The notes under the pieces: generated by a model
The model's database searches: none
What the model saw: only the letters and a program-made list of their open reading frames with translations
What the model was told of the DNA's origin: nothing
In this document: positions 3,669 through 58,573 of the stretch, piece after piece
Layout of the letters: each line of letters opens with the position of its first letter
How positions within the stretch are numbered: position 1 is the stretch's first letter
Origin: an uncultured Gammaproteobacteria bacterium
GTDB lineage: Bacteria > Patescibacteriota > Microgenomatia > Levybacterales > GWA1-39-11
Reading direction: 5' to 3'
NCBI GenBank assembly: GCA_964406795.1
Contig: CAYOTA010000005.1
Span: 14,235 to 78,234 of the forward strand
Length of the DNA: 64,000 nt
Program-made: the position numbers and the translations under genes

Positions 3669-3670
3669 AA

Positions 3671-4516
3671 TCAAGATAACTTTTTACCCAAAACACCTTT
3701 TAATAATTTTTCCTGTTCTTTTTTTAACTCTTTAATATATCTTTCGGGCACTAAGTCTTCTGGCATTTTCCCACCAATTTCTCTGATTGTTTGTCTTACT
3801 TTTTTGCCAATTTCAAAATGTGTGCTACTGGATTGGTAGTCTCCCTTTATATTTTCATTTCTTATCTTTTCATCTGTTTGAGTTATCCTGAATAAATTGG
3901 CGGCAAGCTCTGTTGAGCCGGCCCTATCTAAAACGTCATCTTTCCCAATTTTTTTCCTACTTTGAATTTTATCTTTTTTCATCCCATATAGTCCTTCATA
4001 TCCCGCATTATTAAATCTACCGAAATTATTTACACCAGCCTGCTTTGCCGTTTGAAAAAGTTTCTTGTTGTGGTCTTTCACCTCATCTCTTATAAATAGT
4101 CTTTTTTCATTGTCTTCTAATTGTGCTGAGATTTCTTGTCGCCTAGTTTGAATAGCAAAGTAAGTTTGAGCTAGTGAAATTTCTTTTTTTCGAGAGTCTC
4201 CATTTTGTGCTATAAGATAACAAGCATATCTAGATAACTTATAATCCTGAACAGACCTGGAAGCTTCTCTAGGACTTCCTTTCGCGATTATTATCATTTT
4301 ACCGACGTCGGTAAAATGATCAAAAACATCTTGTCCGCTATTCTTACAAGCTAGTTTTGCCTTCTCAATTACAACACTCTGGAAATTACTCCACTTACTA
4401 TATCCTAAAAGAGGCATTAACTCCCGTGCCTCCCAATACTCAATGCCATTTTCATCAACTTTTTTAATCTGTTCAAAATTTTTACTAGGACTTGTTGGAA
4501 ACTGAGAATTATTCAT
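3671..4516 (-). CDS. dinD: DinD-like DNA-damage-inducible protein
   Basis: IEYWEARELMPLLGYSKWSNFQSVVIEKAKLACKNSGQDVFDHF and YKLSRYACYLIAQNGD match the DinD pattern as I recall it. Confidence 0.5.
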   Translation of the reverse strand: MNNSQFPTSPSKNFEQIKKVDENGIEYWEARELMPLLGYSKWSNFQSVVIEKAKLACKNSGQDVFDHFTDVGKMIIIAKGSPREASRSVQDYKLSRYACYLIAQNGDSRKKEISLAQTYFAIQTRRQEISAQLEDNEKRLFIRDEVKDHNKKLFQTAKQAGVNNFGRFNNAGYEGLYGMKKDKIQSRKKIGKDDVLDRAGSTELAANLFRITQTDEKIRNENIKGDYQSSSTHFEIGKKVRQTIREIGGKMPEDLVPERYIKELKKEQEKLLKGVLGKKLS

Positions 4517-15427: not shown

Positions 15428-18400
15428 TTAACACTCCGCATGACCACAAGAGTAACATTTGCTACATCCTTCTTCATGAACAAAGCTTGCTACTCCACAC
15501 TGAGGGCATACATCAGCATGTGAGTGTGTCTCAACATTTGGTTCTGCTTCCAGTGGAAGTTGTTCTACCTGCGTAGGCTGTTCTAGTACGGCCTGTTTTT
15601 GTCCATATACATCAGCCAAAGATTGCGGCATAGTTCCGTGAGTTCCGGCGCCATTAGACATACTAATTGCGGCGGCTCCATTAGACGCTCCGTTTGTAGC
15701 AGCACCATTGAGAGCTGGGGCGTCTGTAACAGGTACAGAAACAGTAGTTGAAGTATCAAGCGCAGGAAGCGCATCTGCCTGAATAGGCGCTTTTGGAGCG
15801 TCTACCACGCGTCCGTTTACTTTAAAGCTAAATTCCTCAGCAAACACTTTTGCCATAGCATCCGGCACTGAGCGCACCCTATTTTGTCCAAATCCAATGG
15901 ATCTCATACCCCCTATTCCTGATAGTTGAGCTATTATTTGTCTCACTCTCTCGCGTGGCTCCACAGGGCTTTGTAGTCTCAGCGTTAATGAAATAATTCG
16001 TCCCAAAGCGTCAGCCATAGCGGCCACGTCAGATCCTAACTTTCCAATAGTCACAAATACTTCAAACGGATTACCGTTATCATCACTGTTAATCGTTATA
16101 AACGCGTCCCCAAGTGGAGTCTGAGTTTTATAGGTTAAACCGCGCATAACAACAGGGCGGCGTAAAATAGGTGCTGCTTTTTGTACTACTGGTTCTTCTT
16201 TCTTTTCCTCTTTCTTTTCTTCACGTTGCAAAACTCCCACGCGTGATCCGTCTCTCATGTAGGTAATCCCCTTCATGCCCATGTCGTAAGCTGCCATATA
16301 TAAATCTTTTACATCGTCAACGGTGTGGTTATTAGGCGCATTTACTGTTTTGGAGATTGATGAGTCTATATAGCCCTGTGCAATTGCCTGAACTTTTGCG
16401 TGATCCATTGGAGTTAAGTCGTTTGCTGATACAAAATAGTCTGGGCGCTTCTCGTCAGGATTTTGGCGTCTCCACTCGTCATAAAGTGGGTGATACAATT
16501 TGTCAATTCCTAAACGTGACTTTCTGATAAATTCAAATTCATAAACCGGCTCAATTCCTGAAGTAGTATTTGCAAGCAATGAGGTGGTTCCTGTAGGCGC
16601 AATTGTTAAGAGCACTGCATTTCTAATTCCATCCTTTTCAATTTTTTCGCGGATTGCCTTTGGAAGTGCTTTAATGTGGTGCCCCTGTAGGTATTTTTCA
16701 GCTTCAAATTTAGGGAATGCGCCTTTTTCTTTTGCAATATCAGATGACGCAATATATGCATTGTCACGCAAAGTTTTAAATATTTTTTCAATAGTTGGGA
16801 GAGATTCTTCTGCTCCGTAACGCAGCTTCATCATAATAAGCGCGTCTCCCAGTCCCATGATCCCAAGACCGGTGCGTCGTATATCTTTTGCGCATTGCTC
16901 GTTTTCTTTGAGAAAATAATAAGTAGAATCTATAACATTATCTAAAAATCTGGTTGCAATCTTAACATCTGTACCAAATGAATCATAGTCAAATTTTCCG
17001 TCTTTCACATATGCCGTTAAGTTCATGGCACCCAAGTTACATACGGCCCATGCTGATAATGGCTGTTCTCCGCAATTATGGACATAAAACCCATTTGCAT
17101 CAAACGCATGAAGACCTGGAATCTGTGCATCATATACATCTTCTACTCCATCCTGAGAAATTGAGCTCACCGTTACCATAAATTTTTCTCGATTATATGA
17201 TCTTTTATAAGATTTCAGCAGCATTTCAAGTTTTTCTTTCTTGCTTGAATCCATGAATCCAATAAGATTCTTAAACCAAAGCATATTCTCGCCTGATATC
17301 GATAACTCGTGTTGAGCTTTTATTTTGTAGTCTTTCTTTCCACCCTTTCCATCCGGAAGCACAGATATTCCTTCTACTCTTCTATTAAGATATATCTTCG
17401 AGACAACTCCAAACCGAAGAAGAATTCTTTGTACAGCTTCTAGCAATTTTTTATCTGACTGGGCAAGCCTTACACTAACTCCCTTCTGCTGAGAGCCTTG
17501 GACACTCCCATCAGCATCAAATAACCCCTGAAGTAAACCTTTTGAAAATTCACTTGATGCCTGTTCCATACTAGGAGTTATATACTTTTTATTTCTTTCC
17601 ATACCAAGTTCTAAAGCGAGAGTACGAAGGTACGAGAATGCAAGACGGTGTTCTGCTCGCTGAGGAACTTCCATCCAGCCCGTAAAGTCACTTCGATGGG
17701 GCATTGACTGAGAGAGAGAATAGGCATGATTCATAACGCTCTGTGCTCCTTTATTATTTGTTTCCCAAACAGACAGGACTGCTTTATCCTCTTTCAGCGT
17801 ACCATCTCCAACAAGAAGGCCCATTAAATAACCTTCCCCGTAGGTATGCTTACCGTTCCAGAAGACTTTTTCAGAGTGATTATTAATGGAAATCTTGTCT
17901 CCTATTCTTAGCTGGCCAGCTTTTTCCCAAACATAAGAAGCCTTATAACGAGTATGTTTTTCAACTTTTTGAACAGGGTGGTCTTCTGTTAGACGAAGCG
18001 CATACCCTTCCTTTGTAGTAACTGATAATAACTGCTTTGTTCCGGTTTTGAAAAATCCAAGATCTGAAGAAGGAATATCTTTTCCATTCACCCGAGCAAT
18101 GAACTGAACTCCTACAAGGTCTCTAACTTGACGTGGACCTTGCTTTGTGTGAATCCATGCATCTGCTGGTAGGCAAGGGTTAGTTGCAATCAGTTTTTCA
18201 AAATAATGAGTGTTAGATCTTTTGTTAGAGCGCTCCAAGAAGTGAAGTCCTGGCTCAGCCGATCTCCATGCAGCGGTACAAATCATATCCCAAAGATATG
18301 ACGCTTTTATAACCTTGTGAACTTTTACTCGTCCCCCCGCCTTTTTCCAGCCAATCATATCTCCATCCCAAATCTCATCGTACTTTGGGTCATCCAGATC

Positions 18401-19054
18401 CGGGTAGCACAGCTCCCAATCCCCATTATTCTTAACTGCTTCCATGAATGCGTCAGACAAACACACTGAAAGGTTTGCGCCATTAATGCGGGTTAAATCC
18501 TGCTTTACTGTTATGAATTCTTCTACATCTGGATGCCAATCGTGAAGCATAAGCATCAAAGCACCGCGACGTGATCCACCCTGCTGCACTATGTCTTTTG
18601 TGGCAAGAGAATATAATTCTGCCCAGTTAATAGGGCCTGAAGAAAATCCATTTACTTTTTTGACGCGTGCGCCGCGTGGTCGTAAAGACGACAAATTAAG
18701 CCCTACTCCGCCTCCACGAGCCATTATCTCAATCATTGACTTAAGATTATCTAGAATTCCGTCTCTACTGTCTTTTGGGGATGGGATAACAAAACAATTA
18801 TAATAGGTAACGTCATAATTAGTGCCGGCTCCTGCAAAAATACGTCCTCCTGGCAAGAACTTGAAGTCCTTCATGACTTCATAGAATTTTTTCCTCCATT
18901 CAGCTCTCGTCTCTTTGGTTTCAACTTCTGCAATTCCGCGCGCAACTCTCTTCCACATTTCTTCTGGGGTTTTTTCCACAGGATTTCCCGCCTCATCCTT
19001 TAAAGAATAGCGATCCAAAAATACTTTTTCTGAGAGTCCTGTTAATTGTGTCAT
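15428..19054 (-). CDS. nrdJ: Class II (adenosylcobalamin-dependent) ribonucleotide reductase NrdJ, interrupted by an in-frame intein
   Basis: N-terminal RNR motifs FLPGGRIFAGAG and NCFVIP. The active-site motif NPCGE is split as ATNP-[intein]-CGEQPL. C-terminal Cys cluster CPQCG...CSKCYSCGHAEC. Confidence 0.85.
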   Translation of the reverse strand: MTQLTGLSEKVFLDRYSLKDEAGNPVEKTPEEMWKRVARGIAEVETKETRAEWRKKFYEVMKDFKFLPGGRIFAGAGTNYDVTYYNCFVIPSPKDSRDGILDNLKSMIEIMARGGGVGLNLSSLRPRGARVKKVNGFSSGPINWAELYSLATKDIVQQGGSRRGALMLMLHDWHPDVEEFITVKQDLTRINGANLSVCLSDAFMEAVKNNGDWELCYPDLDDPKYDEIWDGDMIGWKKAGGRVKVHKVIKASYLWDMICTAAWRSAEPGLHFLERSNKRSNTHYFEKLIATNPCLPADAWIHTKQGPRQVRDLVGVQFIARVNGKDIPSSDLGFFKTGTKQLLSVTTKEGYALRLTEDHPVQKVEKHTRYKASYVWEKAGQLRIGDKISINNHSEKVFWNGKHTYGEGYLMGLLVGDGTLKEDKAVLSVWETNNKGAQSVMNHAYSLSQSMPHRSDFTGWMEVPQRAEHRLAFSYLRTLALELGMERNKKYITPSMEQASSEFSKGLLQGLFDADGSVQGSQQKGVSVRLAQSDKKLLEAVQRILLRFGVVSKIYLNRRVEGISVLPDGKGGKKDYKIKAQHELSISGENMLWFKNLIGFMDSSKKEKLEMLLKSYKRSYNREKFMVTVSSISQDGVEDVYDAQIPGLHAFDANGFYVHNCGEQPLSAWAVCNLGAMNLTAYVKDGKFDYDSFGTDVKIATRFLDNVIDSTYYFLKENEQCAKDIRRTGLGIMGLGDALIMMKLRYGAEESLPTIEKIFKTLRDNAYIASSDIAKEKGAFPKFEAEKYLQGHHIKALPKAIREKIEKDGIRNAVLLTIAPTGTTSLLANTTSGIEPVYEFEFIRKSRLGIDKLYHPLYDEWRRQNPDEKRPDYFVSANDLTPMDHAKVQAIAQGYIDSSISKTVNAPNNHTVDDVKDLYMAAYDMGMKGITYMRDGSRVGVLQREEKKEEKKEEPVVQKAAPILRRPVVMRGLTYKTQTPLGDAFITINSDDNGNPFEVFVTIGKLGSDVAAMADALGRIISLTLRLQSPVEPRERVRQIIAQLSGIGGMRSIGFGQNRVRSVPDAMAKVFAEEFSFKVNGRVVDAPKAPIQADALPALDTSTTVSVPVTDAPALNGAATNGASNGAAAISMSNGAGTHGTMPQSLADVYGQKQAVLEQPTQVEQLPLEAEPNVETHSHADVCPQCGVASFVHEEGCSKCYSCGHAEC
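17075..18175 (-). other. Intein (367 aa) with LAGLIDADG homing-endonuclease domain inside nrdJ
   Basis: It begins CLPADAWIHT immediately after ATNP and ends FYVHN immediately before CGEQPL. The LAGLIDADG blocks are LMGLLVGDGTL and LLQGLFDADGSV. The coordinates were verified against the codons. Confidence 0.8.
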
Positions 19055-19126: not shown

Positions 19127-19576
19127 TTACTTTATTAATTTCTGTAATTCTTTTTGAAAATCTTCCAAATCTACAAATTGTCTAAATACGCTTGAGAATC
19201 TGATATACGCTACTTTATCTATCTTTTTTAGCTTTTGTGCAACCAGACCTCCTATTTTTTTACTTTCTATCTCAACGCTCTCTCCACCCCGCAACTCCAT
19301 TTCTATTTCGTCCACAATACGCGTTATATCGAGTACTGTCACTGAAGTCTTTTGCGTTGCTGTTGTCATTCCCCGTTGTAGTTTGTGTCTATCAAATTGT
19401 TCCCGTTTTCCGTCTTTTTTTAGAACTATAAGCGGTACGTTTTCAATCCGTTCATATGTCGTAAATCGTTTCTGACACTTTGAACAAGTACGTCTCCTTC
19501 TTATGTTAGCTCCGTCATCCCCGACTCGTGTTTCTACAACTTCCGTTTCATTCCCTTTGCAGTATGGACAATGCAT
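19127..19576 (-). CDS. nrdR: Transcriptional repressor NrdR
   Basis: N-terminus MHCPYCKGNETEVVETRVGDDGANIRRRRTCSKCQKRFTTYERIE (zinc ribbon plus ATP-cone). Confidence 0.9.
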   Translation of the reverse strand: MHCPYCKGNETEVVETRVGDDGANIRRRRTCSKCQKRFTTYERIENVPLIVLKKDGKREQFDRHKLQRGMTTATQKTSVTVLDITRIVDEIEMELRGGESVEIESKKIGGLVAQKLKKIDKVAYIRFSSVFRQFVDLEDFQKELQKLIK

Positions 19577-25699: not shown

Positions 25700-26077
25700 A
25701 TGCAAAATTACAACTCAAAAGGTAAAGGTGATCTTAAAGCTAGATGCTATAGATTTAGCCTTGATATTATATCTCTTGTAAGCACGTTACCCCAAAACAG
25801 AAGCTCATGGGTACTAGGAGACCAAGTGCTAAGAAGCGGCACCAGCATTGGCGCAAACCTAACAGAAGCCTCAGCTTCAAGCTCGAGATTAGAATTTAAA
25901 AAATTCCATGAAATAGCCTTGAAAAGCGCAAATGAAACTAAATATTGGCTCTTGCTCCTTCAAGACTCGAAAATTGCAGAAACAAACAGAACTACTCCCC
26001 TCTTACAAGAAGTAACTGAACTTGCTAATATGATTGCAGCAGGTGTTTTAAAATTGAAGCAAAAAATTACTTTTTAA
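25700..26077 (+). CDS. Four-helix-bundle protein (23S rRNA IVS-protein family)
   Basis: CYRFSLDIISLV...GDQVLRSGTSIGANLTEASASSSRLEFKKFHEIALKSANETKYWLLLL matches the four-helix-bundle (TIGR02436-like) pattern. Confidence 0.7.
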   Translation: MQNYNSKGKGDLKARCYRFSLDIISLVSTLPQNRSSWVLGDQVLRSGTSIGANLTEASASSSRLEFKKFHEIALKSANETKYWLLLLQDSKIAETNRTTPLLQEVTELANMIAAGVLKLKQKITF

Positions 26078-27510: not shown

Positions 27511-29313
27511 ATGGCAAAACGCACACGAAAACCATTTAAACTTATTCCTATACTTTTGACGGCTATTATAGTAACCATAGCAGTTGGAGCAATTGTAAAA
27601 CTTGCACCGCTACTTCTGCAGCAGACTCCTTCCCAACAAACTGTTGCCGCAAGTGGACCATTTAAAGATAATTCAGACAATCCGGCACTAGCACGACAAT
27701 GTCCGGTTGTAAGAAAATATCAAGAAGCTTGGCTAACCGGACCTATAACTACTAATTCTAAAATTTCTTGCTACGACACATGCAGTTTAGATTTCATAAA
27801 CAGAGCTAACAGCGCCTACAGTCATCCGCAGACAGAGGACAGCACGAGAAAAAGAATTGACAACTGGCTTTCAGGGGTAGATGAACGTGAGGGTGAGGGT
27901 GGAAAAGTGTATGAAACTATGGCAGCATGTTTTAATGATACTCCTGACCCCTCAACAGGCCCAATAAGTGAGGGCGCAGGTGGAACACTTGATTATCCCA
28001 CTTTTACACTCTTACTCTCCAATAAGCCGGCCGAAAGTAATGATGGGAAATTAGACGCTCAGGTTAGATATGTAACGCTTATATATCCCAATCCGCCTCC
28101 AACAAGTGCTGGCGACAACAAGTACTACTACTGTCTTAAATCAAACCCTCAGGATTGCGATGATGATGATTTAAAAGATGCAACTTATGACAGCAGTAAA
28201 AATCTGATTAAAATAAATAAACTGTGTGGAAATGGGAATAATAAACTCAAAGCCAACGATGATTGTAAGGATGACGGCACTGACTATTTCCATCCTGAAA
28301 GGATATACCGTGTTACATTCTATGAAAAGAAGAAAGCTGACTCTGCTGAAGTTGCCTCAGCATCATTCTATGTGTCTCGCTTCTACCCCAATATTATTCA
28401 ACCAAAAGAAGAGGCAGAACCTCGACTTAATATAAACCAAATCAAAGGAACAAAAGCGGCAGCTCAACAGTATTATGATCTTAAAGTTACGCTTGACGGA
28501 CGAAATACATGGGCAGATAGATCAGTTGCCAACGGTGACCAATATAATGACTATTGGCTGGTAGTTGAAGGTTTTGACAACGACTATCAAAGTGAAAGCA
28601 AGTGTCTGTATGTGGGCGGTTCCGGTCAGGGAACCGCAACCATTCGGCTGTCAGTGAAACCTGAAGGAAGCGTTGATGAGTTGACTGCAGGGAAATATCT
28701 GCTGAAAATTAAAGATGCAATAAATGGAAAACTTCTTACGAGCGACAATCCCCAGTGCCAGGAAAACGATTTTACGTATTGGTTTATACCATTTACCATA
28801 GCTGCTGGGGATAAGTCAGGGACAGTTTCGGCATACATAAAAGACCCGTATGGCAAAGAGATAGGTTACCAGGGCGCGCAATCTGCACCCGCCCCCATAT
28901 GTCCTACCGGTTTTAAAAACTCGGATGGAAACTGTACTAGGATTAGTACAGCTCTTGGAACTATTAGAACTGAACCTATATTCTTTATACGGGATTTATT
29001 TAGACTAGTTTTGGGAATCGGGGGAATTGCAGCAGTAGTCTTCTTTATTCAGGCGGGATATACAGTTATGACATCTGCCGGAAATAAAGAAAAGGTAGGC
29101 CAAGCACGCGAGCAAATAACAGCAGCCGTTATGGGACTTATCTTTATTATTTTGTCAGTGACCATTTTGGAATTTATTGGGGTAAATATCTTGCAGCTGC
29201 CAGGCTTTGGGCCATCAGCTCCTGAGTCGCCTGCTGCAGCCCCCACTATACCGCCGGGAGGAATTGAAAATGATCCTGATTTAAGATCTCAAGATCCTAT
29301 TCTTAATCCATAA
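27511..29313 (+). CDS. Cys-rich secreted protein fused to a C-terminal T4SS-pilin-like (TrbC/VirB2-like) membrane domain
   Basis: Start trimmed to MAKRTRKPF (TM anchor). About 450-aa ectodomain with many Cys. The C-terminus GIGGIAAVVFFIQAGYTVMTSAGNKEKVGQAREQITAAVMGLIFIILSV shares the two-helix motif with the three downstream paralogs. Confidence 0.55.
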   Translation: MAKRTRKPFKLIPILLTAIIVTIAVGAIVKLAPLLLQQTPSQQTVAASGPFKDNSDNPALARQCPVVRKYQEAWLTGPITTNSKISCYDTCSLDFINRANSAYSHPQTEDSTRKRIDNWLSGVDEREGEGGKVYETMAACFNDTPDPSTGPISEGAGGTLDYPTFTLLLSNKPAESNDGKLDAQVRYVTLIYPNPPPTSAGDNKYYYCLKSNPQDCDDDDLKDATYDSSKNLIKINKLCGNGNNKLKANDDCKDDGTDYFHPERIYRVTFYEKKKADSAEVASASFYVSRFYPNIIQPKEEAEPRLNINQIKGTKAAAQQYYDLKVTLDGRNTWADRSVANGDQYNDYWLVVEGFDNDYQSESKCLYVGGSGQGTATIRLSVKPEGSVDELTAGKYLLKIKDAINGKLLTSDNPQCQENDFTYWFIPFTIAAGDKSGTVSAYIKDPYGKEIGYQGAQSAPAPICPTGFKNSDGNCTRISTALGTIRTEPIFFIRDLFRLVLGIGGIAAVVFFIQAGYTVMTSAGNKEKVGQAREQITAAVMGLIFIILSVTILEFIGVNILQLPGFGPSAPESPAAAPTIPPGGIENDPDLRSQDPILNP

Positions 29314-29315
29314 CT

Positions 29316-29792
29316 ATGAATACTATAAAAGAGCTAGCATTAATACTTCCCGGATATGGGCAGGTTCAGACACCTCCGGGAATTCCCTCAGGCGCCTCTT
29401 CTCCTCAAACTATTATTCTGGCCTCACTTAACTTGCTTATCATGGCGGTTGTCATAGGTGCTTTGATTTTTATAATCTATGGCGGTATTCTTTGGGCCAC
29501 ATCAGGTGGTGATAAAGCAAAACTTGACAAGGCACGGCGTAGTATTACATTCTCCATAGTAGGGCTGGTTGTGATGATATTAGCCTTTGTGATAGTCCAA
29601 ACTGTAGGTATGCTTTTAGGTGTTTCTGTTCTCTCAGGATTTGGAAAATCCACAGGAGGTAGTAGTAGCCGTCCCGTTAATATAACAAACCCAACCCAAT
29701 GCAGAGCAGGCGGTGGATTTTGTGACCCCCAGTTTTGTACTGCAGGAAATCCTATTGGATCCTGTGGAGCAGGTGTTATATGTTGCAAATAA
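29316..29792 (+). CDS. Pilin-like small membrane protein (TrbC/VirB2-like two-helix motif) with C-terminal beta-defensin-like 6-Cys tail
   Basis: VIGALIFIIYGGILWATSGGDKAKLDKARRSITFSIVGLVVMILAFVIV. Tail CRAGGGFCDPQFCTAGNPIGSCGAGVICCK with spacing C-x6-C-x4-C-x8-C-x5-CC. Confidence 0.55.
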   Translation: MNTIKELALILPGYGQVQTPPGIPSGASSPQTIILASLNLLIMAVVIGALIFIIYGGILWATSGGDKAKLDKARRSITFSIVGLVVMILAFVIVQTVGMLLGVSVLSGFGKSTGGSSSRPVNITNPTQCRAGGGFCDPQFCTAGNPIGSCGAGVICCK

Positions 29793-29852
29793 ATGAACTC
29801 AAATTCGCATATTGACAAACACTTTGAATGTGTGCATTAATGGTTATAGAAC

Positions 29853-30287
29853 ATGAAAAAAGCACTGACCCACATAACAGTTTTAAGCGTACTTCTTCTT
29901 ATTTCAGCAGGTAGCGCATTTGCAGGCAGCCATCCTCCTGTTAATCCTGGTGGTAACGGAACAGTTAATATTGTACCTACAGCTATTGGTCCTGTTGCTA
30001 CAGACGCAAATGGCCTTGTAAGATTTATCATAAATTCATTAATTGTTATCGGAGTTATAGCGTCCCTTATTTTCCTGCTTTGGGGAGGACTCAGATGGAT
30101 TATTTCAGGCGGAGATAAGGGTAAAGTTGACGCCGCAAGAAGTACTATAGTTGCCGCTATCGTAGGACTTGTTGTAGTTATACTCGCCTACGTTATCGTA
30201 AATACTGTACTAACTATTGTGACCGGCTCTGGACTCTCAGGATTCACTCTGCCTACGTTAAGTAACCCTAACAATACAAAGTTCTAG
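29853..30287 (+). CDS. Pilin-like small membrane protein paralog
   Basis: Signal peptide plus VIGVIASLIFLLWGGLRWIISGGDKGKVDAARSTIVAAIVGLVVVILAYVIV. Confidence 0.55.
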   Translation: MKKALTHITVLSVLLLISAGSAFAGSHPPVNPGGNGTVNIVPTAIGPVATDANGLVRFIINSLIVIGVIASLIFLLWGGLRWIISGGDKGKVDAARSTIVAAIVGLVVVILAYVIVNTVLTIVTGSGLSGFTLPTLSNPNNTKF

Positions 30288-30335
30288 ACATTCTTCTCTT
30301 GCATTTTTACCTTTTTCCTTGCATACTTTTACTAT

Positions 30336-30668
30336 ATGAATTTGTTTACAACTGACTGGGGTAAGTGCTTTGACCGCGGGGTCGTAGATGTTAATACCCC
30401 CCCTAAACTCGGCTGCGCATTTATAGTAATCCAAAATATCATTAATGCAGCACTTGTTTTGTCAGCCGTTGTAGCCGTGTTTCTCATAACCTATGCCGCG
30501 TTTCAGTACGTAACGTCAGGCGGGGATAAAGAAAAAGTAGATTCAGCACGTAAGCGAATTACGTTTGCGATAATTGGACTGGTTATTATCTTCATGGCAT
30601 TTGCTGCAATTAACTTCATCTCCACATTTACAGGGGTAAATCCTTCCCAGCTTGGTGTTGGAAGATAA
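30336..30668 (+). CDS. Pilin-like small membrane protein paralog
   Basis: LSAVVAVFLITYAAFQYVTSGGDKEKVDSARKRITFAIIGLVIIFMAFAAI. Confidence 0.55.
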   Translation: MNLFTTDWGKCFDRGVVDVNTPPKLGCAFIVIQNIINAALVLSAVVAVFLITYAAFQYVTSGGDKEKVDSARKRITFAIIGLVIIFMAFAAINFISTFTGVNPSQLGVGR

Positions 30669-30686: not shown

Positions 30687-32771
30687 TTATGCAGCGGGAG
30701 CAAGAGTAGCGGCGGGTGCTGTAGCCGTTCCTACTGGTGGAGGCGTAGTTCGTTCTGAAAGCGATGTTGGCTCTGTCTTATGATCTTCTTTGTGGTCATC
30801 AGTAGCATGTTCATTTTTCTTTGCAAATAGTTCTTTGGTCGCAAATGCGCCTCCCAAAAGTAATCCTGCCGGTGGGTAAAAGATAGAAATAGCCAACCAC
30901 CAGCCAAATTTAGGATGCTTTTTAATAAAATCTATGGTTTTGCCTGCAAACCCTGCTTCCTTTTTCTTTTGCTCAAACCACTCTTTGTGCGCTTCCATTG
31001 CCGTTGAGATAGCATCTGCACCTAATACATTTTGCACCATTTCAGAGTCTCTCTCAGATAAAACACCGGCCTTTAGTGCCGTGGCAAGCAACTTATTCCT
31101 AACCGCAGGGATAACTTGATCCTTAAACTTAGGTGTTTGTAACATATTATCAATCTGGTCATCTGTATATACCCTCTCCATTACAGGCTTACCCTGTGCA
31201 TCGTACATAAGACTACCGGTAACGGGATCAATTGCGTGATTTTTTTCATTTTGAAGCATATTTTTAACTATCTCTTCGGGTCCTTTCTCCCCGTGTGTTT
31301 TTACAATATTTATGTCAGACTCTATTCTCTTTTTATCAAACCGCTCTACTTCCCCATGTCCCAGATTCTTTCCGCGTCTTAATTTTGGAATTTTAGAAAG
31401 CTTCGAGTCTTCTATTTTTCTCCATCTTCCATCCCGTGCCTGCTCCAAAACCTTCTTTGCCGCAGGGTTAACTTCATCATCAATCATTTTCTGGTATGCC
31501 TCTTCCTCCAAACCTGCTGCTTTTAGTATGCGCTGTTCATAAAGTTTTTTAACCGCATCTTTCATAATCCCCTGCGCATCTTTTACATATTTATCCGCCT
31601 CTTCAAGCTTTGCGGTATCTAGATCTCCATTTAAAGTTGCGTGCTCAACTGCAGCAGCAACACGTTCAGTTTTTAATCGTAAGTCTTCTTGATATTGTCT
31701 GTTAACTTCTGCCTTGAGTCCTGTCTCCTCCGCAGCTAAGGCATCTCTTTTTGTAGCTACTCTATCATATTCTGGCAAAATAAGCTCCGCCTCTTCCAAG
31801 ACCCCTGACGCAGTATCTATTTGATCCTGAACGCCCTTTAATTCTGCAGCCTTTGCAGCAGCATTGTATGTTGTACCAGGTCCTCCCACGGGCTTTTCCA
31901 TAATTGCCGTATACTTATCCTTCAAATTCTGTAACTTTAATTCATTCGTACTCTTTGAAGCCCGCATTGCAGCGATGTCAGCCCCACCCTTTCCTACCCC
32001 AGCTAAATACGCTGATACCTTACCCTCTTCGGCCATTAATTCGAATGCTTTAGGCCCCGGCACCGGAACTCCCCCTACAATTGGTGCTGCAAATTCATTT
32101 AGTTTTTTATTAGTTTCCGCAGATGCAGCATTGTTTGCTTTAATGCTCTCATCAATGGCGTCTACTTTTGCTTTTGCTTCGTCTACCTTTGCCTGTGCCT
32201 CAATTGTCTTTTGGCTTACTACTCGCTCTCGACCAAAGACTTCGTTATATTGTTTTGCATATGAGGCCTTTAGGTCACCTGAATCATCCAAGTTTCCTAA
32301 AGTGCCCATAATGAAAGCATCCAAAGCCGCTGGATCTCCGGCATATTCATCCAATAATGGTTTTGTTTCAGGTATTTCTTTAAGCGCATCGTGCGCACCC
32401 TTACGCATTACATCTTTTTCTGCTATGGTAAGACTTGTAAAGTCTTTCTGAATAATGTTCCTGGCAACCTCTTCTGCATTGCTTACATCTGTGTACCTTA
32501 TTGTCTCGTCTGCCGTTCTCGTAACTGCCCCTTTTGAATCTACGGTCCCAATATTTTGGTTTATGTTTTCTCTCGCGGCTGCTTCGTCGATTTTTACTCC
32601 ACGAGCTCGAGCCATAATTTCATGCGGACTCATATGCTTCGTATCGGCATGGAACCTGTCAGCAACACGCTTGTGGTGCGCTGCTTCTTGCGCATCAGCG
32701 CCCGTGCGCGCCTCGGCGCCTACTCCGGCTCTTACTATATTATTTATTCTTTTTTCTGTATTAAGTGTCAT
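30687..32771 (-). CDS. Coiled-coil-rich hypothetical protein, C-terminally tail-anchored with Pro/Thr/Ala-rich end
   Basis: 694-aa ORF. TM WWLAISIFYPPAGLLLGGAFA near the C-terminus. Confidence 0.5.
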   Translation of the reverse strand: MTLNTEKRINNIVRAGVGAEARTGADAQEAAHHKRVADRFHADTKHMSPHEIMARARGVKIDEAAARENINQNIGTVDSKGAVTRTADETIRYTDVSNAEEVARNIIQKDFTSLTIAEKDVMRKGAHDALKEIPETKPLLDEYAGDPAALDAFIMGTLGNLDDSGDLKASYAKQYNEVFGRERVVSQKTIEAQAKVDEAKAKVDAIDESIKANNAASAETNKKLNEFAAPIVGGVPVPGPKAFELMAEEGKVSAYLAGVGKGGADIAAMRASKSTNELKLQNLKDKYTAIMEKPVGGPGTTYNAAAKAAELKGVQDQIDTASGVLEEAELILPEYDRVATKRDALAAEETGLKAEVNRQYQEDLRLKTERVAAAVEHATLNGDLDTAKLEEADKYVKDAQGIMKDAVKKLYEQRILKAAGLEEEAYQKMIDDEVNPAAKKVLEQARDGRWRKIEDSKLSKIPKLRRGKNLGHGEVERFDKKRIESDINIVKTHGEKGPEEIVKNMLQNEKNHAIDPVTGSLMYDAQGKPVMERVYTDDQIDNMLQTPKFKDQVIPAVRNKLLATALKAGVLSERDSEMVQNVLGADAISTAMEAHKEWFEQKKKEAGFAGKTIDFIKKHPKFGWWLAISIFYPPAGLLLGGAFATKELFAKKNEHATDDHKEDHKTEPTSLSERTTPPPVGTATAPAATLAPAA

Positions 32772-32775
32772 ATGT

Positions 32776-33105
32776 TTATGCTGCTTTTATTGCAGCTAGT
32801 GCTGACTCTACATTTCCTTCTTTTGCATGTGCTTGAGCTTGTGTTATAGCCTTCATTTCTCCTACATGCTGAATTTCACCTTCTAAAAATCTCTCTATTG
32901 GGAGGAAAAACTGCCATTTGGTCGCTAATTCTTCCAGAAACACCCGCATTTCTTCTTGAGTTTTAACGGTGTCTATTTTTTTGAGTACAAAATCCGCTAT
33001 CACACTTAAATCGTACTCTCTTATAGCTCCCGCCTCAAGTGCATCTATTGACGTGTCTACAATCATTTTCTCAATTTTTTTCTTTTCCTCTGGTGTTACT
33101 TCCAT
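32776..33105 (-). CDS. Small hypothetical protein
   Basis: Start trimmed to MEVTPEEKKK because the longer listed ORF would overlap the convergent four-helix-bundle gene. Confidence 0.35.
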   Translation of the reverse strand: MEVTPEEKKKIEKMIVDTSIDALEAGAIREYDLSVIADFVLKKIDTVKTQEEMRVFLEELATKWQFFLPIERFLEGEIQHVGEMKAITQAQAHAKEGNVESALAAIKAA

Positions 33106-33336
33106 GGTACTATTGTATAGTTTCCTAAATGATCCTTCTTGACAGAAAGACAACGCTTCTTTCACAAGCGCCTCACAACTTAATATTACGGAAAAGCTTA
33201 TAAGAAAGTCAACGCTATTTTCACACCAGGCACAAAAACTCTTTTTTTTGACCCATTTTGATGATCTTGCATGCAAATGTTTCACGAGGTAAGCTGAATA
33301 GTAGAAATTGCTTGATTGCTTTCTTGTTAGATTGTT

Positions 33337-33717
33337 ATGGAAAATACTCAATACCTTACTGTTGAAAAGCTTTCGTGCTACAAAAGGTCGTTTGAGTTGT
33401 CGAATTATGTGTGGGGCTTGGTTATAAAATGGCACACTCTCGCAAGACACACTATTGGCGCACAACTTATACGCTCTACCGACTCTATATCAGCGAATAT
33501 TGCTGAAGGATTTGGAAGATACTCAAAAAAAGACAAGACTAAGTTTTATTATATTGGGTATGCCTCCACACTGGAATCTGTAGACTGGACTAAGAAAGCT
33601 TTCGCAAGACATGTCGTAACCAAAGAAGAGTTTGATCACATTGTAATAGAGTTGTCTGCCTTGCCTAAAGAAATTCACCAGTTGATTAATTTTACAAATA
33701 AAAAGCTAACGATATAA
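33337..33717 (+). CDS. Four-helix-bundle protein (second paralog)
   Basis: GAQLIRSTDSISANIAEGFGRYSKKDKTKFYYIGYASTLES matches the conserved block of this family. Confidence 0.7.
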   Translation: MENTQYLTVEKLSCYKRSFELSNYVWGLVIKWHTLARHTIGAQLIRSTDSISANIAEGFGRYSKKDKTKFYYIGYASTLESVDWTKKAFARHVVTKEEFDHIVIELSALPKEIHQLINFTNKKLTI

Positions 33718-33808: not shown

Positions 33809-34984
33809 ATGGAGAACCACCCAATCCCACAAGACGTTACCGGATTTAAATTTAGACTTATAGGATCTATAACGCTCAAGCAGTTTTTGTATTTACTAGG
33901 TGCCGGCGGAATAGATCTTGCCCTCTACTTTTTGCCTATCCCAATATTTGTCAAGATTCCCTTAATGGTAATTCCAGCAATTATTGCACTTGGTCTCGCA
34001 TTTGTGCCAATTGACGGACGACCCATGGACAAAATGATCATGAATTTTTTGCGTGCGCTACCTGCTGAAAACGAATTCATTTTTAGGAAAAAAGGTGCTG
34101 ATATGCCCTACTTTGATTTCCAGGCGCCTGTCAGGGCAAAAACAAGTGTTCCGGCACCAGATTCCCGTGCGTCTCAAAAAGCAATTTTATTTAGTCAACT
34201 TTCAAAGTCATACTTCAACGCAGATGAAGACGAACAGCAGGGGATTCAAAATGTAACGTCTTTGTTCCAAACAGGTGGCGCCCCAACAGCGGGTTTTGTA
34301 AACAGAGTAATTAAGGCTGATGAGGCACCAGCTGCAACAGCTCCAGTTCCATTACCACAGGCTCCTTTAGATGAAGCGTCAACCCAAATCACAGACCTGG
34401 CAAAACCAGTTATGCCTTCTGAAATTGCAAAATCTACACAGACACCAAATGCCAGCGCCCCAGCTCCATTACCAAAAGAGGTTGCACCTGCTGCAGAACC
34501 TGTACCCACTCCACTGCCATCTCCAGCACCCTTGGAAAACCTTGTGATTGAAGCTCAACCCACCACCCAACCAGTAATGCAAACCGTAGTACAAGTGGCA
34601 GCTGTGCCACAAGATGTCCAAGAAGCACCCAACACAACACAACCTGTCTCTACCGCCCCGCGCGCGTCCTATGAGGCACCAAATGTTATAGAAGGAATTG
34701 TGCGTGACCCCCGCGGCAAACCGCTTCCTCATGTAATTGTGGAGATCCTGGATGAAAACAACATTCCAAAACGCACATTCAGAACAGGACAAAACGGTAT
34801 GTTTATATCGGCAACCGCCATGGCACCCGGCACATACACTATTCACCTAGAGGACACGCTTAAAAAGCAGGATTTTACAGATAAAACAATTGAGGTTAAC
34901 GGATCAGTGCTTCCCGTTATTGAAATAACGTCAGTAGATCAGCGGGAAAAATTACGCCGAGAATTATTTGGACAAACTATATGA
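33809..34984 (+). CDS. PrgI/VirB3-like membrane protein with long Pro/Ala-rich linker and C-terminal beta-sandwich-like domain
   Basis: The N-terminus FKFRLIGSITLKQFLYLLGAGGIDLALYFLPIP...IPAIIALGLAFVPIDGRPMDKMIMNFLRAL resembles the PrgI family as I recall it. The gene lies upstream of the VirB4-like genes. Confidence 0.45.
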   Translation: MENHPIPQDVTGFKFRLIGSITLKQFLYLLGAGGIDLALYFLPIPIFVKIPLMVIPAIIALGLAFVPIDGRPMDKMIMNFLRALPAENEFIFRKKGADMPYFDFQAPVRAKTSVPAPDSRASQKAILFSQLSKSYFNADEDEQQGIQNVTSLFQTGGAPTAGFVNRVIKADEAPAATAPVPLPQAPLDEASTQITDLAKPVMPSEIAKSTQTPNASAPAPLPKEVAPAAEPVPTPLPSPAPLENLVIEAQPTTQPVMQTVVQVAAVPQDVQEAPNTTQPVSTAPRASYEAPNVIEGIVRDPRGKPLPHVIVEILDENNIPKRTFRTGQNGMFISATAMAPGTYTIHLEDTLKKQDFTDKTIEVNGSVLPVIEITSVDQREKLRRELFGQTI

Positions 34985-35017: not shown

Positions 35018-35626
35018 ATGTCTAAAATTAAATCGACTACACAACAATTTATTGAGATCGAAGATATTCACGATGAAGTGGTGCTTTTAAGAGGACGCAA
35101 TGCCTGCTCTATCTTGGAAGTTTCCAGTGTTAACTTCTTTTTACTCTCTCAAGACGAACAAAACGCACGCGTGTATGGCTACATGTCGCTTTTGAATTCT
35201 TTGTCATTTGCAATTCAAATAGTGATTATTTCCAAACGCATAGATTTGACCTCTTATCTGGGCTCTCTAGATCACAAAATATCAGTTACTCAAAACGCCA
35301 GGGTGTCTGAGCATTTACGCTTATACCGCGATTTTATCCAAGAACTTATTAAAGACGCTGGTCTATTGGACAAAAAAACGTATGTGGTAATTCCTTTTAC
35401 ATCCCTTGAGTTAGGACCTACTGTCGGCAAAAAAGACTATGCCCAGCGGGTAAATGATTCCATTGCCACCAAACGCACAAACGTTATGACACAAATTGAA
35501 AGAATTGGTCTTTCCAGCAGAGTGCTTAAGGCCGAAGAATTATCCCGCGTGTTTTTTGAGCTGTTTAACCAACAAAATATCACAACTGACTTTAGCTCAA
35601 GCGACATTAAGAACATAATCATCTAA
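35018..35626 (+). CDS. VirB4/TraC-family N-terminal domain encoded as a separate ORF
   Basis: TTQQFIEIEDIHDEVVLLRGRNACSILEVSSVNFFLLSQDEQNARVYGYMSLLNSL parallels the N-terminus of Gram-positive VirB4 homologs such as Tn916 Orf16 (QQTIPYREMLKDGICRVNDKLYTKTIRFFDINYQLAQNEDKNAIF). Confidence 0.5.
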   Translation: MSKIKSTTQQFIEIEDIHDEVVLLRGRNACSILEVSSVNFFLLSQDEQNARVYGYMSLLNSLSFAIQIVIISKRIDLTSYLGSLDHKISVTQNARVSEHLRLYRDFIQELIKDAGLLDKKTYVVIPFTSLELGPTVGKKDYAQRVNDSIATKRTNVMTQIERIGLSSRVLKAEELSRVFFELFNQQNITTDFSSSDIKNIII

Positions 35627-35712: not shown

Positions 35713-37878
35713 ATGTTTGGAATAGGTAAAAAAAATAAAAAACAACAGGCACAGCAGGTTGCAGCGCCACTTGTAGCTGGACAGCCAGTTAAACCAGGAG
35801 CAGTGCCTGCTGCTGCAGGAACTATGATGCCGCAAAAAGCGGCACAGACAGCACTGAATCAAGGCATTCAAACCTTGAAACAAGGCTCGGTGTCACTTGT
35901 GGACCTTATTGCGCCCTCATCTGTTGAAGTGGATTTTAAAAACATCCGCGTAGGAGATGCATTTTATAGAACGTTTATTGTAGTAGATTATCCGCGTGAA
36001 GTGTCCCCGAGCTGGCTATCTGTTTTAATTGACTACAAAGAAACCATGAATATCTCTATGTTTGTGTATCCTGTCGAAAGTAAGGATATTTTGTCCAACT
36101 TACGACGCAAGGTTGCAGAAATGGAAGCAACACTTGAGTCTGACGCCAAAAACGGAATTGAATCAGATCCTAAAGTACGTGCTGCACTTGAAGACGCAAT
36201 TGCGCTGCGTGAAGAGTTGGCCCGCGGCCTAGAACGATTCTTTCAGTTTGGACTCTATATAACGCTTTCAGCCAAAAGTATTGAGGAGCTGGATCGCAAA
36301 ACAAATGAATTAACATCACTGCTTGCCTCCAACTTGCTTGTCATTAAACCCGCTACTCTTCAGATGGAAGATGGGTTTAAAACAACGCTTCCAATTGGGC
36401 AAGATAAATTATTTGTAACTCGCAACATGGATACCACGTCAGTTGCGTCCACCTTCCCGTTTACGTCATATGAAATTTCGCATCCTAATGGTATTTTTTA
36501 CGGTGTTAACACCCTCAACAACTCACTTGTAATAGTTGACCGATTTTCGTTTGAAAACGCAAATTCTGTGGTTTTTGGAAAATCAGGATCAGGAAAATCA
36601 TTCTTGGTAAAACTTGAGATTTTGCGCCAAATGATGTTTGACGCAGAAATATTAATTATTGATCCGGAAGATGAATACAGAACCTTGTCTCACGCACTGG
36701 ACGGAGAATACATTTCATTTTCCAAAGACTCTGAAGTGCGCATAAACCCTTTTGCACTGTTATCAGATGATAGAACTGAGGCACAATTGGGTATTAAAAT
36801 ACTGTCTCTTCACTCACTTCTCAAAACCATGTTAGGTGCCTTTTCGCCAACACAGGAAGCAATTCTTGACCGCTCGCTTGTTCTAACATACAAGCAAAAA
36901 GGAATAACACCGGATCCTGCAACTTACTCAAACGAAGCACCAATTCTGGAAGATCTGTATAAAACTCTTTTAAACGTGGAAGAACCGGAAGCAAAAGACC
37001 TAGCGTTTAGACTGGAAAAATATGTAAAAGGAGGATTTGCAGGGCTGCTCAATGCCCAGACAAATTATGACGTTAAAAACCAGCTGACAGTGTTTTCCAT
37101 AAAACAGCTTGAAGACGCCCTGCGCCCTGTGGCAATGCAGGTTATTTTGGACTTTATTTGGAACAGAGTCAGAACAAAACTCAAGAAAAGAATCCTGATT
37201 GTAGATGAGGCTTGGTACTTAATGCGAAATCCAGACTCTGCCGCTTTTCTCCAGGGAATTGCAAAACGTGCACGCAAATATTACCTAGGTGTGACGACTT
37301 TAACTCAGGATATTGAAGACTTTTTGTCATCAGACTATGGGAAGGCAATTTTGTCCAATTCCTCTATGCAAATACTGCTAAAACAGAATTCATCAGAGGT
37401 TGAAGTGCTTGCTTCCACCCTAAATCTATCTGAAGGAGAAAAACAGTTTTTGCTAACCGCCCAGGTGGGTGAAGGACTCTTTTTTGCAGGACAAAATCAC
37501 ATAACCGCGCAGTTCTTGGCTTCTAACTTTGAGTACCAGCTTATTACGTCAAAGCCGCAAGATATTTTAGATGAAGAAAGCAGAAACCTGCCTCCACAAG
37601 CGGAACAAATTATACAGGCTGACGCACAAACTCAAGCAACAGTTGAACAGCCAGTGACTCCTCCTCAACCTCTTGCGCCTGCGCCTGCGCCGGGTATTCA
37701 AGCACCTGAGGTAGCCTATGAGGCGCCACAAATTGTACCGGCAAATCCAGAACAGCCTATTGCACAACCTCAACCTGCCGTTCAGCCCGCTACGCCTCAA
37801 CCAGCCGCACCTGTGCAAAACCCTACTCCGCCAATACAACCGGGCCCGCAACCTGTGGAGCCAACTACTCCTAGATAA
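35713..37878 (+). CDS. VirB4/TrbE/CagE-like T4SS ATPase (ATPase part) with Pro/Gln-rich C-terminal tail
   Basis: LIAPSSVEVDFKNIRVGDAFYRTFIVVDYPREVSPSWLSVLIDY. Walker A VVFGKSGSGKSFLVK. Walker B ILIVDEAWYLM (DEAW). Confidence 0.7.
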   Translation: MFGIGKKNKKQQAQQVAAPLVAGQPVKPGAVPAAAGTMMPQKAAQTALNQGIQTLKQGSVSLVDLIAPSSVEVDFKNIRVGDAFYRTFIVVDYPREVSPSWLSVLIDYKETMNISMFVYPVESKDILSNLRRKVAEMEATLESDAKNGIESDPKVRAALEDAIALREELARGLERFFQFGLYITLSAKSIEELDRKTNELTSLLASNLLVIKPATLQMEDGFKTTLPIGQDKLFVTRNMDTTSVASTFPFTSYEISHPNGIFYGVNTLNNSLVIVDRFSFENANSVVFGKSGSGKSFLVKLEILRQMMFDAEILIIDPEDEYRTLSHALDGEYISFSKDSEVRINPFALLSDDRTEAQLGIKILSLHSLLKTMLGAFSPTQEAILDRSLVLTYKQKGITPDPATYSNEAPILEDLYKTLLNVEEPEAKDLAFRLEKYVKGGFAGLLNAQTNYDVKNQLTVFSIKQLEDALRPVAMQVILDFIWNRVRTKLKKRILIVDEAWYLMRNPDSAAFLQGIAKRARKYYLGVTTLTQDIEDFLSSDYGKAILSNSSMQILLKQNSSEVEVLASTLNLSEGEKQFLLTAQVGEGLFFAGQNHITAQFLASNFEYQLITSKPQDILDEESRNLPPQAEQIIQADAQTQATVEQPVTPPQPLAPAPAPGIQAPEVAYEAPQIVPANPEQPIAQPQPAVQPATPQPAAPVQNPTPPIQPGPQPVEPTTPR

Positions 37879-57706: not shown

Positions 57707-58573
57707 TTACAATTCAATAAGTGTTGTGCTATCAGAGTTTTTTGCGTCTTTAATATATTGAAGGTAGCGTTCAGTGGATGAAAGACGCTTGTGTCCTAAC
57801 ACTTTTGACAAGAATACGAGTGACACACCATTTCTTAAATGGTGAGCTACAAACGTGTGGCGTAAATCATTAATTTTTGCATTTTCAATTCCTGCTTTTC
57901 TAAAGTATCGCTCTACTGCGTCTCTGATGTTTCTAACTAAAAATGGCTTTCCGGTTTTTGTTACAAATACGTGTGTTCCTTCAGTTTTAGTTCTTCCGGC
58001 AAGATATCTTTTAAGACCTTCTTTAGCGCGTCTATTTAGCTGAACTTCACGAGCTGCATGCCCTTCGTAAGGCGCAATGTGAAGCGCATTGTCAGAGACA
58101 TCATCCATTTTAAGATTTGCGAGTTCACCAATTCTTATACCTGTTTGGAGTAATACTTCAATAATTGCGTAAATTCTTGGGTCAACTGATGCCGCATCAC
58201 GTAATGCTCTATATTCAAGAGGAGTTAGCACGCGAGGTGCAGACAATTCATATTTAGGGTGAGAAACAAGTAAAGAAGGATCGTCAGTTATATATTCATT
58301 AATCTTCAAGAATCTATAAAAAGTTCTTGTTGAGTTAAGTTTTCGTGAAAGAGATTTTGGTGTATATCCTTTGTCAGACAAACTTCCTAAAAACGCTTGG
58401 ATATCATTATTATCTATTTCATGGATGTGATGTTTCTCAAGAGTTTCCAGAAAGGATAAGAGTTGGTCAATATCTTTGCCGTATGCTAATATGGTAGCAG
58501 ATGCCCTCTTCTTTGATTTCAAGAAGTCTTGGAATTTGTCATATGCATCTCGCATTTTAGTAGGAGTATTCAT
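57707..58573 (-). CDS. Tyrosine site-specific recombinase (XerC/XerD/integrase family)
   Basis: N-terminal SAM-like domain. C-terminal catalytic residues in LRHTFVAHHL and GHKRLSSTERYLQY. Confidence 0.8.
   Translation of the reverse strand: MNTPTKMRDAYDKFQDFLKSKKRASATILAYGKDIDQLLSFLETLEKHHIHEIDNNDIQAFLGSLSDKGYTPKSLSRKLNSTRTFYRFLKINEYITDDPSLLVSHPKYELSAPRVLTPLEYRALRDAASVDPRIYAIIEVLLQTGIRIGELANLKMDDVSDNALHIAPYEGHAAREVQLNRRAKEGLKRYLAGRTKTEGTHVFVTKTGKPFLVRNIRDAVERYFRKAGIENAKINDLRHTFVAHHLRNGVSLVFLSKVLGHKRLSSTERYLQYIKDAKNSDSTTLIEL

Follow-up and report, generated by a model that had tools for sequence, protein, structure and literature searches.

A tandem array of four T4SS pilin-like genes in a Levybacteria-like contig, with one product fused to a Cys-rich ectodomain and another ending in a beta-defensin-like six-Cys tail

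Four Pilin Genes in Tandem

The window analyzed here, namely the whole 64-kb stretch of DNA taken from contig CAYOTA010000005.1 (assembly GCA_964406795.1), contains four consecutive genes on the same strand that encode proteins of the T4SS_pilin family (PF18895) of type IV secretion systems (T4SS); we call them g1 to g4 in their order along the DNA (table 1). The contig is Levybacteria-like (Patescibacteria), its closest named relatives being metagenome-assembled genomes of Candidatus Levybacteria or Levyibacteriota. An initial annotation made from the DNA alone had described these genes as co-directional paralogs of a two-helix, pilin-like kind, and this description is borne out: the four open reading frames (ORFs) are separated by gaps of 2 (g1-g2), 60 (g2-g3), and 48 bases (g3-g4), and their products score 34.9, 30.2, 35.0, and 33.9 bits, respectively, against PF18895, all above its Pfam gathering cutoff of 26.6 bits. 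The match to a pilin-family profile hidden Markov model (HMM), on which the annotation had staked its reading, is therefore present in each of them. A TTG start of g1 at position 27385 was considered and rejected, as it overlaps the upstream gene and the orthologues start at the position equivalent to the ATG.

Hydropathy and alignment reveal in every gene product two long hydrophobic segments joined by a short turn rich in Lys and Arg, with five such residues in the turn. The pilin domains of the four proteins have a pairwise identity of only ~30%. The motif of the turn, which had been called invariant, is exact in g2, g3, and g4, reading GGDKxK(V/L)DxAR, but it is not kept in g1, which has AGNKEKVGQAR; the sole residues shared by all four are S, G, K, K, A, and R. 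The N-terminal parts of the proteins differ, with g3 having a Sec-type leader, the cleavage site of which was judged by eye, and g2 and g4 having short N-terminal segments that do not resemble a classical signal peptide. Scans for promoters and terminators over the array gave counts that were not above those of shuffled sequences.

Table 1. Positions and characteristics of the features discussed, numbered from the first nucleotide of the window; the pilin array is listed first
Feature	Position	Strand	Characteristics
g1	27511..29313	+	600-aa pilin fusion with ATG at 27511 (ORF, PF18895)
Conserved beta-rich ectodomain core of g1, residues ~160-445	27988..28845	+	Predicted tandem immunoglobulin (Ig)/fibronectin type III (Fn3)-like sandwiches (AlphaFold2, AF2; Foldseek)
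g2	29316..29792	+	158-aa pilin; core at residues ~28-110, then Gly/Ser linker and six-Cys tail (PF18895, hydropathy)
Six-Cys module of g2, residues 126-158	29691..29789	+	PTQCRAGGGFCDPQFCTAGNPIGSCGAGVICCK; beta-defensin-like framework
g3	29853..30287	+	144-aa pilin with Sec-type signal peptide (MKKALTHITVLSVLLLISAGSAFA), Cys-free (PF18895, hydropathy)
g4	30336..30668	+	110-aa pilin with C11 and C27 in a short N-terminal outer segment (PF18895)
AAA+-like ATPase with OmpR/PhoB-type winged helix	26121..27455	+	Trans_reg_C, E 1.8e-22; adjoins the array upstream
Two conserved genes, function unassigned (694 aa and 229 aa)	30687..33465	-	One hydrophobic segment each; separate the pilin array from the T4SS core
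PrgI (VirB3-like) with CarboxypepD_reg-like domain	33809..34984	+	PF12666, E 1.7e-9; syntenic in the related locus L001
202-aa protein	35018..35626	+	L001 orthologue of equal length and position recorded as TraC-like (PF26593, precomputed Pfam)
VirB4-like ATPase	35713..37878	+	TraG P-loop, E 4.8e-35; CagE_TrbE_VirB, E 5e-5
VirD4-like coupling protein, 811 aa	1233..3668	+	TrwB_AAD_bind, 26.3 bits (cutoff 20.5); TraG-D_C, 24.5 bits (cutoff 22)

The Six-Cys Tail of g2 and Its Distribution

The protein encoded by g2 ends in CRAGGGFCDPQFCTAGNPIGSCGAGVICCK; its six-Cys tail of 33 residues stands behind a Gly/Ser linker and has exactly the Cys spacing reported by the initial annotation, C-x6-C-x4-C-x8-C-x5-CC. 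We found 13 relatives of g2, three of which keep the tail (an identical copy at NCBI included), the others ending in ...FGK; orthologues that are tail-less in this way lie at 60-79% identity. Altogether, five copies of the tail are present in four closely related lineages and all retain the six Cys, even one that is out of frame (see below). The four in-frame copies have a DNA identity of 58-84% and still all keep the six Cys as well as the motifs GGFCD and NPIGSCG, with a ratio of nonsynonymous to synonymous substitution rates (dN/dS) of 0.07-0.19, indicative of strong purifying selection, and Cys codons in which TGT and TGC are interchanged. Given this retention of Cys and motifs despite the divergence of the DNA, together with the low dN/dS values and the codon swaps, the tail is not a chance extension of the reading frame.

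Two further cases bear on the turnover of the module within its small clade. In locus L001, the orthologue of g1 (P0018; L001:8100-9980) also ends in a six-Cys module, which has 84% DNA identity to the tail of the g2 in the same locus; hence, the module has been copied or converted between paralogs. Only in L001 is it attached to g1, for the g1 of L004 is tail-less and that of the window carries an unrelated, Pro-rich and Cys-free C-extension of 35 residues. We evaluated the latter as a decayed copy of the six-Cys tail and rejected the idea, as local scores at both DNA and protein level were at the shuffle mean. In L005-L007 (L005:640-850), the g2 reading frame terminates past the linker, just behind six consecutive C (AGTCAGTCCCCCCGCTAA), and an intact six-Cys tail is encoded downstream in the +1 frame (…ANITNAAQCTSDGGFCDPQFCTTRNPIGSCGQGVICCGR). 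L005, L006, and L007 are identical in sequence although they are assemblies of three different sequencing runs; the frame break could be due to phase variation, to +1 ribosomal frameshifting on CCC_C, to a loss that happened very recently, or to an assembly error of a systematic kind.

Beyond these lineages, a profile of the tail run exhaustively against 1.84 billion cluster representatives retrieved only its own cluster and three junk ORFs derived from repeats, with no animal protein at E ≤ 0.001; this search also missed the tail of P0018, so tails on non-representative members of clusters can escape its notice. A degenerate DNA pattern for GNPIGSCG, searched in metagenome contigs, gave only chance matches and no real tail among the matches listed. 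One such chance match (L093, minus strand, around 4259-4281) falls in a metagenome ORF with repeated CxxxC…GxC…CxCxC units (…CNKFCAQNGNSGGSCDFWDKECQCKC…), one unit of which includes GNPIGSCG; the ORF is of cysteine-stabilized alpha-beta (CS-alpha-beta)-like type and unlinked to any pilin. The six-Cys module of g2 is thus real and constrained, and confined to one small clade in which it has been gained, lost, and copied.

Likeness of the Tail to Beta-Defensins

Beta-defensins have the framework C-x(4-8)-C-x(3-5)-C-x(9-13)-C-x(4-7)-CC and a three-stranded beta-sheet held by the disulfides C1-C5, C2-C4, and C3-C6. The tail, with loops of 6, 4, 8, 5, and 0 residues, has a third loop that is one residue short of this range; compared with human beta-defensins hBD-1 and hBD-2, it lacks one residue in the third loop and one in the fourth. 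When three of the tails were scanned alone against Pfam, Defensin_beta (PF00711) was the only family matched by each of them, the best score being 18.4 bits (E 0.0022) over profile positions 1-36 of 36 and that of whole g2 14.6 bits, all below the curated cutoff of 21 bits. In searches of the Protein Data Bank (PDB) with a profile of the tail, beta-defensins were the sole full-length matches, with the six Cys aligned and two gaps of one residue: 2lxo (E 0.012), spheniscin-2 (1ut3, E 0.038), and hBD-2 (1fd3, E 0.17). The coat protein of phage Q-beta, also retrieved, was aligned over the linker and the first two Cys only and has been treated as chance.

The likeness extends beyond Cys spacing, as judged from sequences shuffled with the Cys fixed and from additional matching residues. 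None of 70 such shuffles matched Defensin_beta, and in a local HMM of beta-defensins the tail scored 18.1 bits against -0.3 +/- 4.1 for the shuffles, only 4 of 3000 reaching its score; this HMM was built from nine beta-defensins and offers a lead rather than a curated test. Moreover, GGFC before the second Cys and IGSC before the fourth fall on the conserved glycines of beta-defensins. At variance with antimicrobial beta-defensins, which are strongly cationic, the four in-frame copies of the tail have 0-1 Lys plus Arg and 1-2 Asp plus Glu, for a net charge of ~0 to -1. The AF2 model of the tail, obtained with an alignment of three sequences, has a predicted local distance difference test (pLDDT) value of 53.5, which renders it unusable either way, and gave no Foldseek matches in the PDB; the Pfam scan of g2 gave no match to Defensin_big at E ≤ 1. 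The resemblance claimed by the initial annotation is consequently specific at the level of sequence, considering the single family matched and the failure of the shuffles, but it stays sub-threshold and concerns an uncharged domain of a membrane protein. We regard a beta-defensin-like fold of the tail as possible though rather doubtful, and its descent from animal defensins as very improbable, convergence being the more likely origin of the Cys framework.

The Ectodomain of g1

The first gene of the array codes for a fusion protein in which a signal anchor or leader (residues 7-38) precedes an ectodomain (~39-488), the pilin core (~489-564, with the PF18895 match at residues 492-556), and the 35-residue extension mentioned earlier. 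The ectodomain of ~450 residues holds all 12 Cys of the protein, which are spread over residues 64 to 475, past the N-terminal hydrophobic segment and ahead of the pilin core; the Cys-rich region seen by the initial annotation stands as described. Several Levybacteria-like loci likewise have an array that opens with a comparable ectodomain-pilin fusion, with 12-16 Cys. In the alignment of g1 orthologues, seven Cys are invariant and C239 is kept in 5/6, and the N-terminal ~150 residues are variable. The AF2 model (six sequences) has a mean pLDDT of only 56, but its strand-rich part, residues ~160-445, contains blocks with values of 70-84; two long helices come next, at 489-521 and 525-556, and would correspond to the pilin hairpin. 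Foldseek matched the strand-rich core to Fn3 domains 9-10, RAGE VC1C2, SdrE, CfaB, and Fabs in the PDB, with E values from 3e-5 to 1e-3; CfaE and BcpA were also among the matches, which thus include adhesins and pilins of bacteria. An adhesin role for g1 is plausible on the grounds of this modeled fold, and in this respect the earlier label of candidate tip adhesin agrees with the predicted, if generic, tandem Ig/Fn3-like ectodomain; the location at a tip is unsupported.

Extensions of Pilins in Related Loci

Pilin-domain ORFs were called with a local HMM in 73 loci from GTDB and in the loci of close relatives, for a total of 79 loci, each of which typically has 3-8 pilin paralogs. Among the 343 unique pilin ORFs, 55 have a C-extension of at least 25 aa. 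The 38 C-terminal tails of 25-100 aa, some of them close relatives of one another, invariably have an even number of Cys: none in 15, two in three, four in nine, six in nine, and eight in two. Cys makes up 5.1% of their residues but just 0.74% of those in the background of other long ORFs and 0.15% of those in the cores of the pilins, and tails with at least four Cys occur in 18/79 loci. The Cys-rich tails are unrelated in sequence, the beta-defensin framework being found only in the clade of the g2 tail. One pilin (L028:1735-2682) has a knottin- or conotoxin-like tail ending in C-x6-C-x6-CC-x4-C-x4-C, with a sub-threshold match to Conotoxin (E 0.0032), and another (L071:4456-5505) a CS-alpha-beta-like tail, CxxxC…GxC…CxCxC, with a partial match to Gamma-thionin (E 0.0088); together with these two, the pilins of L067, L016, L021, L015, L018, and L039 carry unrelated Cys-rich tails of 4, 6, 8, or 12 Cys.

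Larger fusions are present too. A Saccharibacterial pilin (L032:8773-10338, minus strand) bears a C-extension of ~400 aa with Big_2 and Peptidase_C39_2 domains above threshold. Two further Saccharibacterial pilins (L076:192-1790 and L077:991-2529) have C-extensions of similar length, the C-terminal sequence of which resembles that of L032. Two pilin-like cores lie in one ORF in L071:5515-6681, L064:5521-6675, L063:4514-5269, L048:4739-5434, L022:4280-4966, and L030:5563-6198. In view of the even-numbered Cys of tails that are unrelated in sequence, and of the bulky fusions, the pilin core looks like a scaffold for variable, disulfide-bonded modules outside the cytoplasm.

Linkage with the T4SS

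The window itself contains VirB4-like, VirD4-like, and PrgI/VirB3-like genes, co-occurrence with VirB4 and VirD4 in related genomes being among the checks that the initial annotation had proposed. PrgI, VirB4, dnaN, and dnaA all lie within 15 kb of the array, with several unassigned genes between VirB4 and dnaN/dnaA; the VirD4-like gene is located ~24 kb from the array and stands outside the main T4SS cluster. Synteny extends to the related locus L001, where the genes between nrdR and virB4, the four pilins included, are in identical order. In L001, the two unassigned genes that follow the array have counterparts of 666 aa and 110 aa, and the AAA+/winged-helix gene occupies the same position upstream of the pilins; it is a candidate regulator of the array. 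The 202-aa protein preceding VirB4 has no Pfam match of its own at E ≤ 0.01, and no relaxase is present among the ORFs of the window that were scanned.

Discussion

Arrays of this kind have already been described, and the array of the window is a member of them. In the study by Quinonero-Coronel et al. (2025, PMC12102498), VirB2-like pilins were found by means of PF18895 near virB4 in 1135 Patescibacterial assemblies, with 441 arrays of 2-11 pilin genes, notably in Microgenomatia and Saccharimonadia and often near dnaA. The array reported here shares with these the PF18895 domain, the tandem arrangement of divergent paralogs, the position beside PrgI/VirB3 and VirB4, and the proximity to dnaA, as well as the lack of a relaxase among the window ORFs scanned, its identity among paralogs of ~30% comparing with a published mean of 25% (PMC12102498). 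As far as the passages found in PMC12102498 and PMC10633639 go, published Patescibacterial pilins are small, and neither N-terminal Ig-like fusions nor disulfide-rich C-terminal modules are mentioned. The array and its pilin biology are known already, and the ectodomain fusion with the disulfide-rich tails appears to be an undescribed variant.

In functional terms, how could proteins with such different ends belong to the same structure? We consider it rather probable, on balance, that the four proteins are VirB2-like (PF18895) subunits of a chromosomal T4SS, in which the core provides a scaffold for outward-facing modules and the knob of g2 makes contact with the host. Each subunit would be a hairpin of two membrane helices, with the basic turn facing the cytoplasm, or the lumen of a filament, and both termini directed outward according to the positive-inside rule. 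In assembled F and T pili, the loop that corresponds to this turn borders the lumen, and both ends of the subunit are found at the surface. With its tandem Ig-like ectodomain, presumably containing disulfides, placed before the core, g1 would probably be a low-copy subunit of adhesin type; g2 would present, C-terminal to its core and held by a flexible Gly/Ser linker, a knob of 33 residues with three disulfides; and g3 and g4, nearly bare, would be the candidate bulk subunits. This knob would be an accessory module of recent acquisition, subject to gain, loss, and copying between paralogs, with the most likely role of a protease-resistant surface for contact with the host cell.

The resemblance to VirB2, TrbC, and TraA includes the small two-helix protein with a short basic loop, the presence of VirB3, VirB4, and VirD4 homologues in the same genome region, and the cleavable-looking leader of g3. 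Several considerations nevertheless weigh against the interpretation just outlined. The initial annotation had assigned the genes to pilins of the TrbC/VirB2 type; the pilin reading is upheld by PF18895 in all four, but none of them matches PF04956 (TrbC/VirB2) at E ≤ 1 in the Pfam scan, and a profile of g2 orthologues retrieves no solved pilin from the PDB at E ≤ 10; consequently, they belong to PF18895 and not to the classical family by sequence. They also differ from VirB2, TrbC, and TraA in the leaderless g2 and g4, in the monoderm organization of the organism, and in the large extracellular fusions, and a domain of 450 residues on the N-terminal side may fit poorly in the helical lattice of a pilus. 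The topology assumed for PF18895 rests on the positive-inside rule, and filament formation as well as surface exposure are putative. Furthermore, the Ig-like fold of g1 is a generic assignment because Foldseek template modeling (TM)-scores on the query are only 0.1-0.2, the tail of g2 has no usable predicted fold, and no disulfide-forming enzyme is encoded by the scanned ORFs of the window.

In an alternative that we regard as unlikely, the PF18895 hairpin is a mere membrane anchor or a part of the T4SS channel, forming no extracellular filament, and g1 and g2 are surface proteins retained in the cytoplasmic membrane, the modules of which reach into or through the wall. Bulky fusions such as the 450-aa ectodomain, the Big_2 plus Peptidase_C39_2 extension, and the duplicated cores would be hard to pack in a pilus, and there is no sequence tie to proven pilins. 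Conversely, F-pilin tolerates and displays peptides fused to its C-terminus, and the presence of 3-8 divergent small paralogs per locus resembles the sets of major and minor pilins of other filament systems. The literature points both ways: monoderm conjugation systems akin to the Patescibacterial T4SS are normally without pili (PMC12102498, PMC10633639), whereas structure-based annotation has labeled these proteins VirB2-like, and their genes are among the essential ones of the T4SS cluster (PMC12857230, PMC10633639). The nature of the g2 tail invites a different alternative, which we hold to be quite unlikely: that it has a genuine trans-defensin fold (C1-C5, C2-C4, C3-C6) and serves as a warhead against the envelope of the host, either displayed on the pilin or clipped at the linker, by binding lipids or lipid II or by permeabilizing the membrane. 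The exclusive match to Defensin_beta over its entire profile, the full-length PDB matches limited to beta-defensins, the behavior of the shuffles with both the Pfam profile and the local HMM, the glycines in conserved positions, and the flexible linker ahead of the module would all be expected from such a fold. The scores below the cutoff, the two shortened loops, the lack of positive charge, and the uninformative structural model are harder to reconcile with it, the neighborhood shows no evident processing site, peptidase, or exporter, and trans-defensins have been reported so far from animals only (PMC11561630).

A more extreme possibility, namely that a Levybacterial pilin gene took up an exon for an animal beta-defensin through horizontal transfer, could account for the tail having vertebrate beta-defensins as its sole detectable similarity and for its extremely narrow distribution in bacteria. 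It is barely credible, given that a recent transfer would have left a far stronger resemblance, whereas no animal protein reached E ≤ 0.001 in the exhaustive search reported above, and that paired-Cys tails unrelated in sequence recur behind the same linker in related pilins, which favors a local invention of the g2 tail. At the opposite end, the pattern of tails could be generalized, and we think it unlikely that such a generalization would hold in full: PF18895 pilins would then be a general platform displaying toward the host surface fast-evolving, disulfide-knotted mini-domains (of beta-defensin-like, knottin/conotoxin-like, and CS-alpha-beta-like types) as well as larger effector-like domains, the tail of g2 being the first true trans-defensin fold in prokaryotes, with display switched on and off by gain, loss, and copying, and possibly by frameshifts at poly-C.

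Comparison with known proteins helps to delimit these possibilities. The tail has in common with beta-defensins and other trans-defensins the six Cys ending in CC, nearly equal loops, the glycine positions, and a match to the whole profile, and the big defensins have, as g2 does, a hydrophobic N-terminal part before the Cys-rich part; unlike beta-defensins, it scores below the cutoff, has shorter third and fourth loops, is uncharged, and belongs to a membrane protein of a bacterium. In the literature that we found, defensins from bacteria are of the cis type only (PMC11561630). Bacterial cis-defensins such as xanthusin-1, actifensin, and AdDLP are likewise small, disulfide-rich, and similar to host-defense peptides of eukaryotes, but they are free, secreted CS-alpha-beta peptides with CxxxC...CxC, a motif that is absent from the pilin-tethered tail of g2 (PMC11561630, PMC12284004) and to which the tail of the L071 pilin, in contrast, comes close in its CS-alpha-beta-like arrangement. 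As to g1, it joins a filament-subunit module to Ig-like sandwiches and in this recalls the minor subunits that bear adhesins in other filament systems, namely VirB5 of T4SS pili, CfaE of CFA/I pili, and the tip adhesins of sortase pili; the fold match is generic, and the putative adhesin of g1 is fused before a VirB2-like core, unlike VirB5, which is a protein of its own.

The interest of these variants stems from the machine to which they would belong, which ultra-small Patescibacteria are thought to use on host cells. The T4SS and its series of pilins are essential for epibiotic growth in Southlakia, the one species tested (Wang et al. 2023, PMC10633639; PMC12857230), and reviews call the role of the Patescibacterial T4SS completely unknown, a pilus being only a possibility (PMC12857230). 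If the variable disulfide modules and Ig-like ectodomains are what they seem, the outward ends of the pilins would be candidate determinants of host contact and host range. Likewise, the intriguing and specific, if sub-threshold, likeness of the g2 tail would inform the question of whether animals invented the trans-defensin framework or whether it is a solution that is easily reinvented.

Other Features of the Window

The VirD4-like gene is followed by a convergent gene with a Bro-N domain (window 1233-4516). Upstream of the array, a member of the 23S rRNA-intervening sequence protein family is encoded at 25700-26077 (PF05635, E 3e-23), between an unassigned gene of 1129 aa and the candidate regulator. 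The large subunit of ribonucleotide reductase (15428-19054, minus strand) is split by an intein with a LAGLIDADG endonuclease domain and has nrdR beside it (19127-19576). Finally, a tyrosine recombinase with Phage_integrase and SAM-like N-terminal domains is encoded at 57707-58573 (minus strand) and may be XerC/D-like or a marker of a mobile element.

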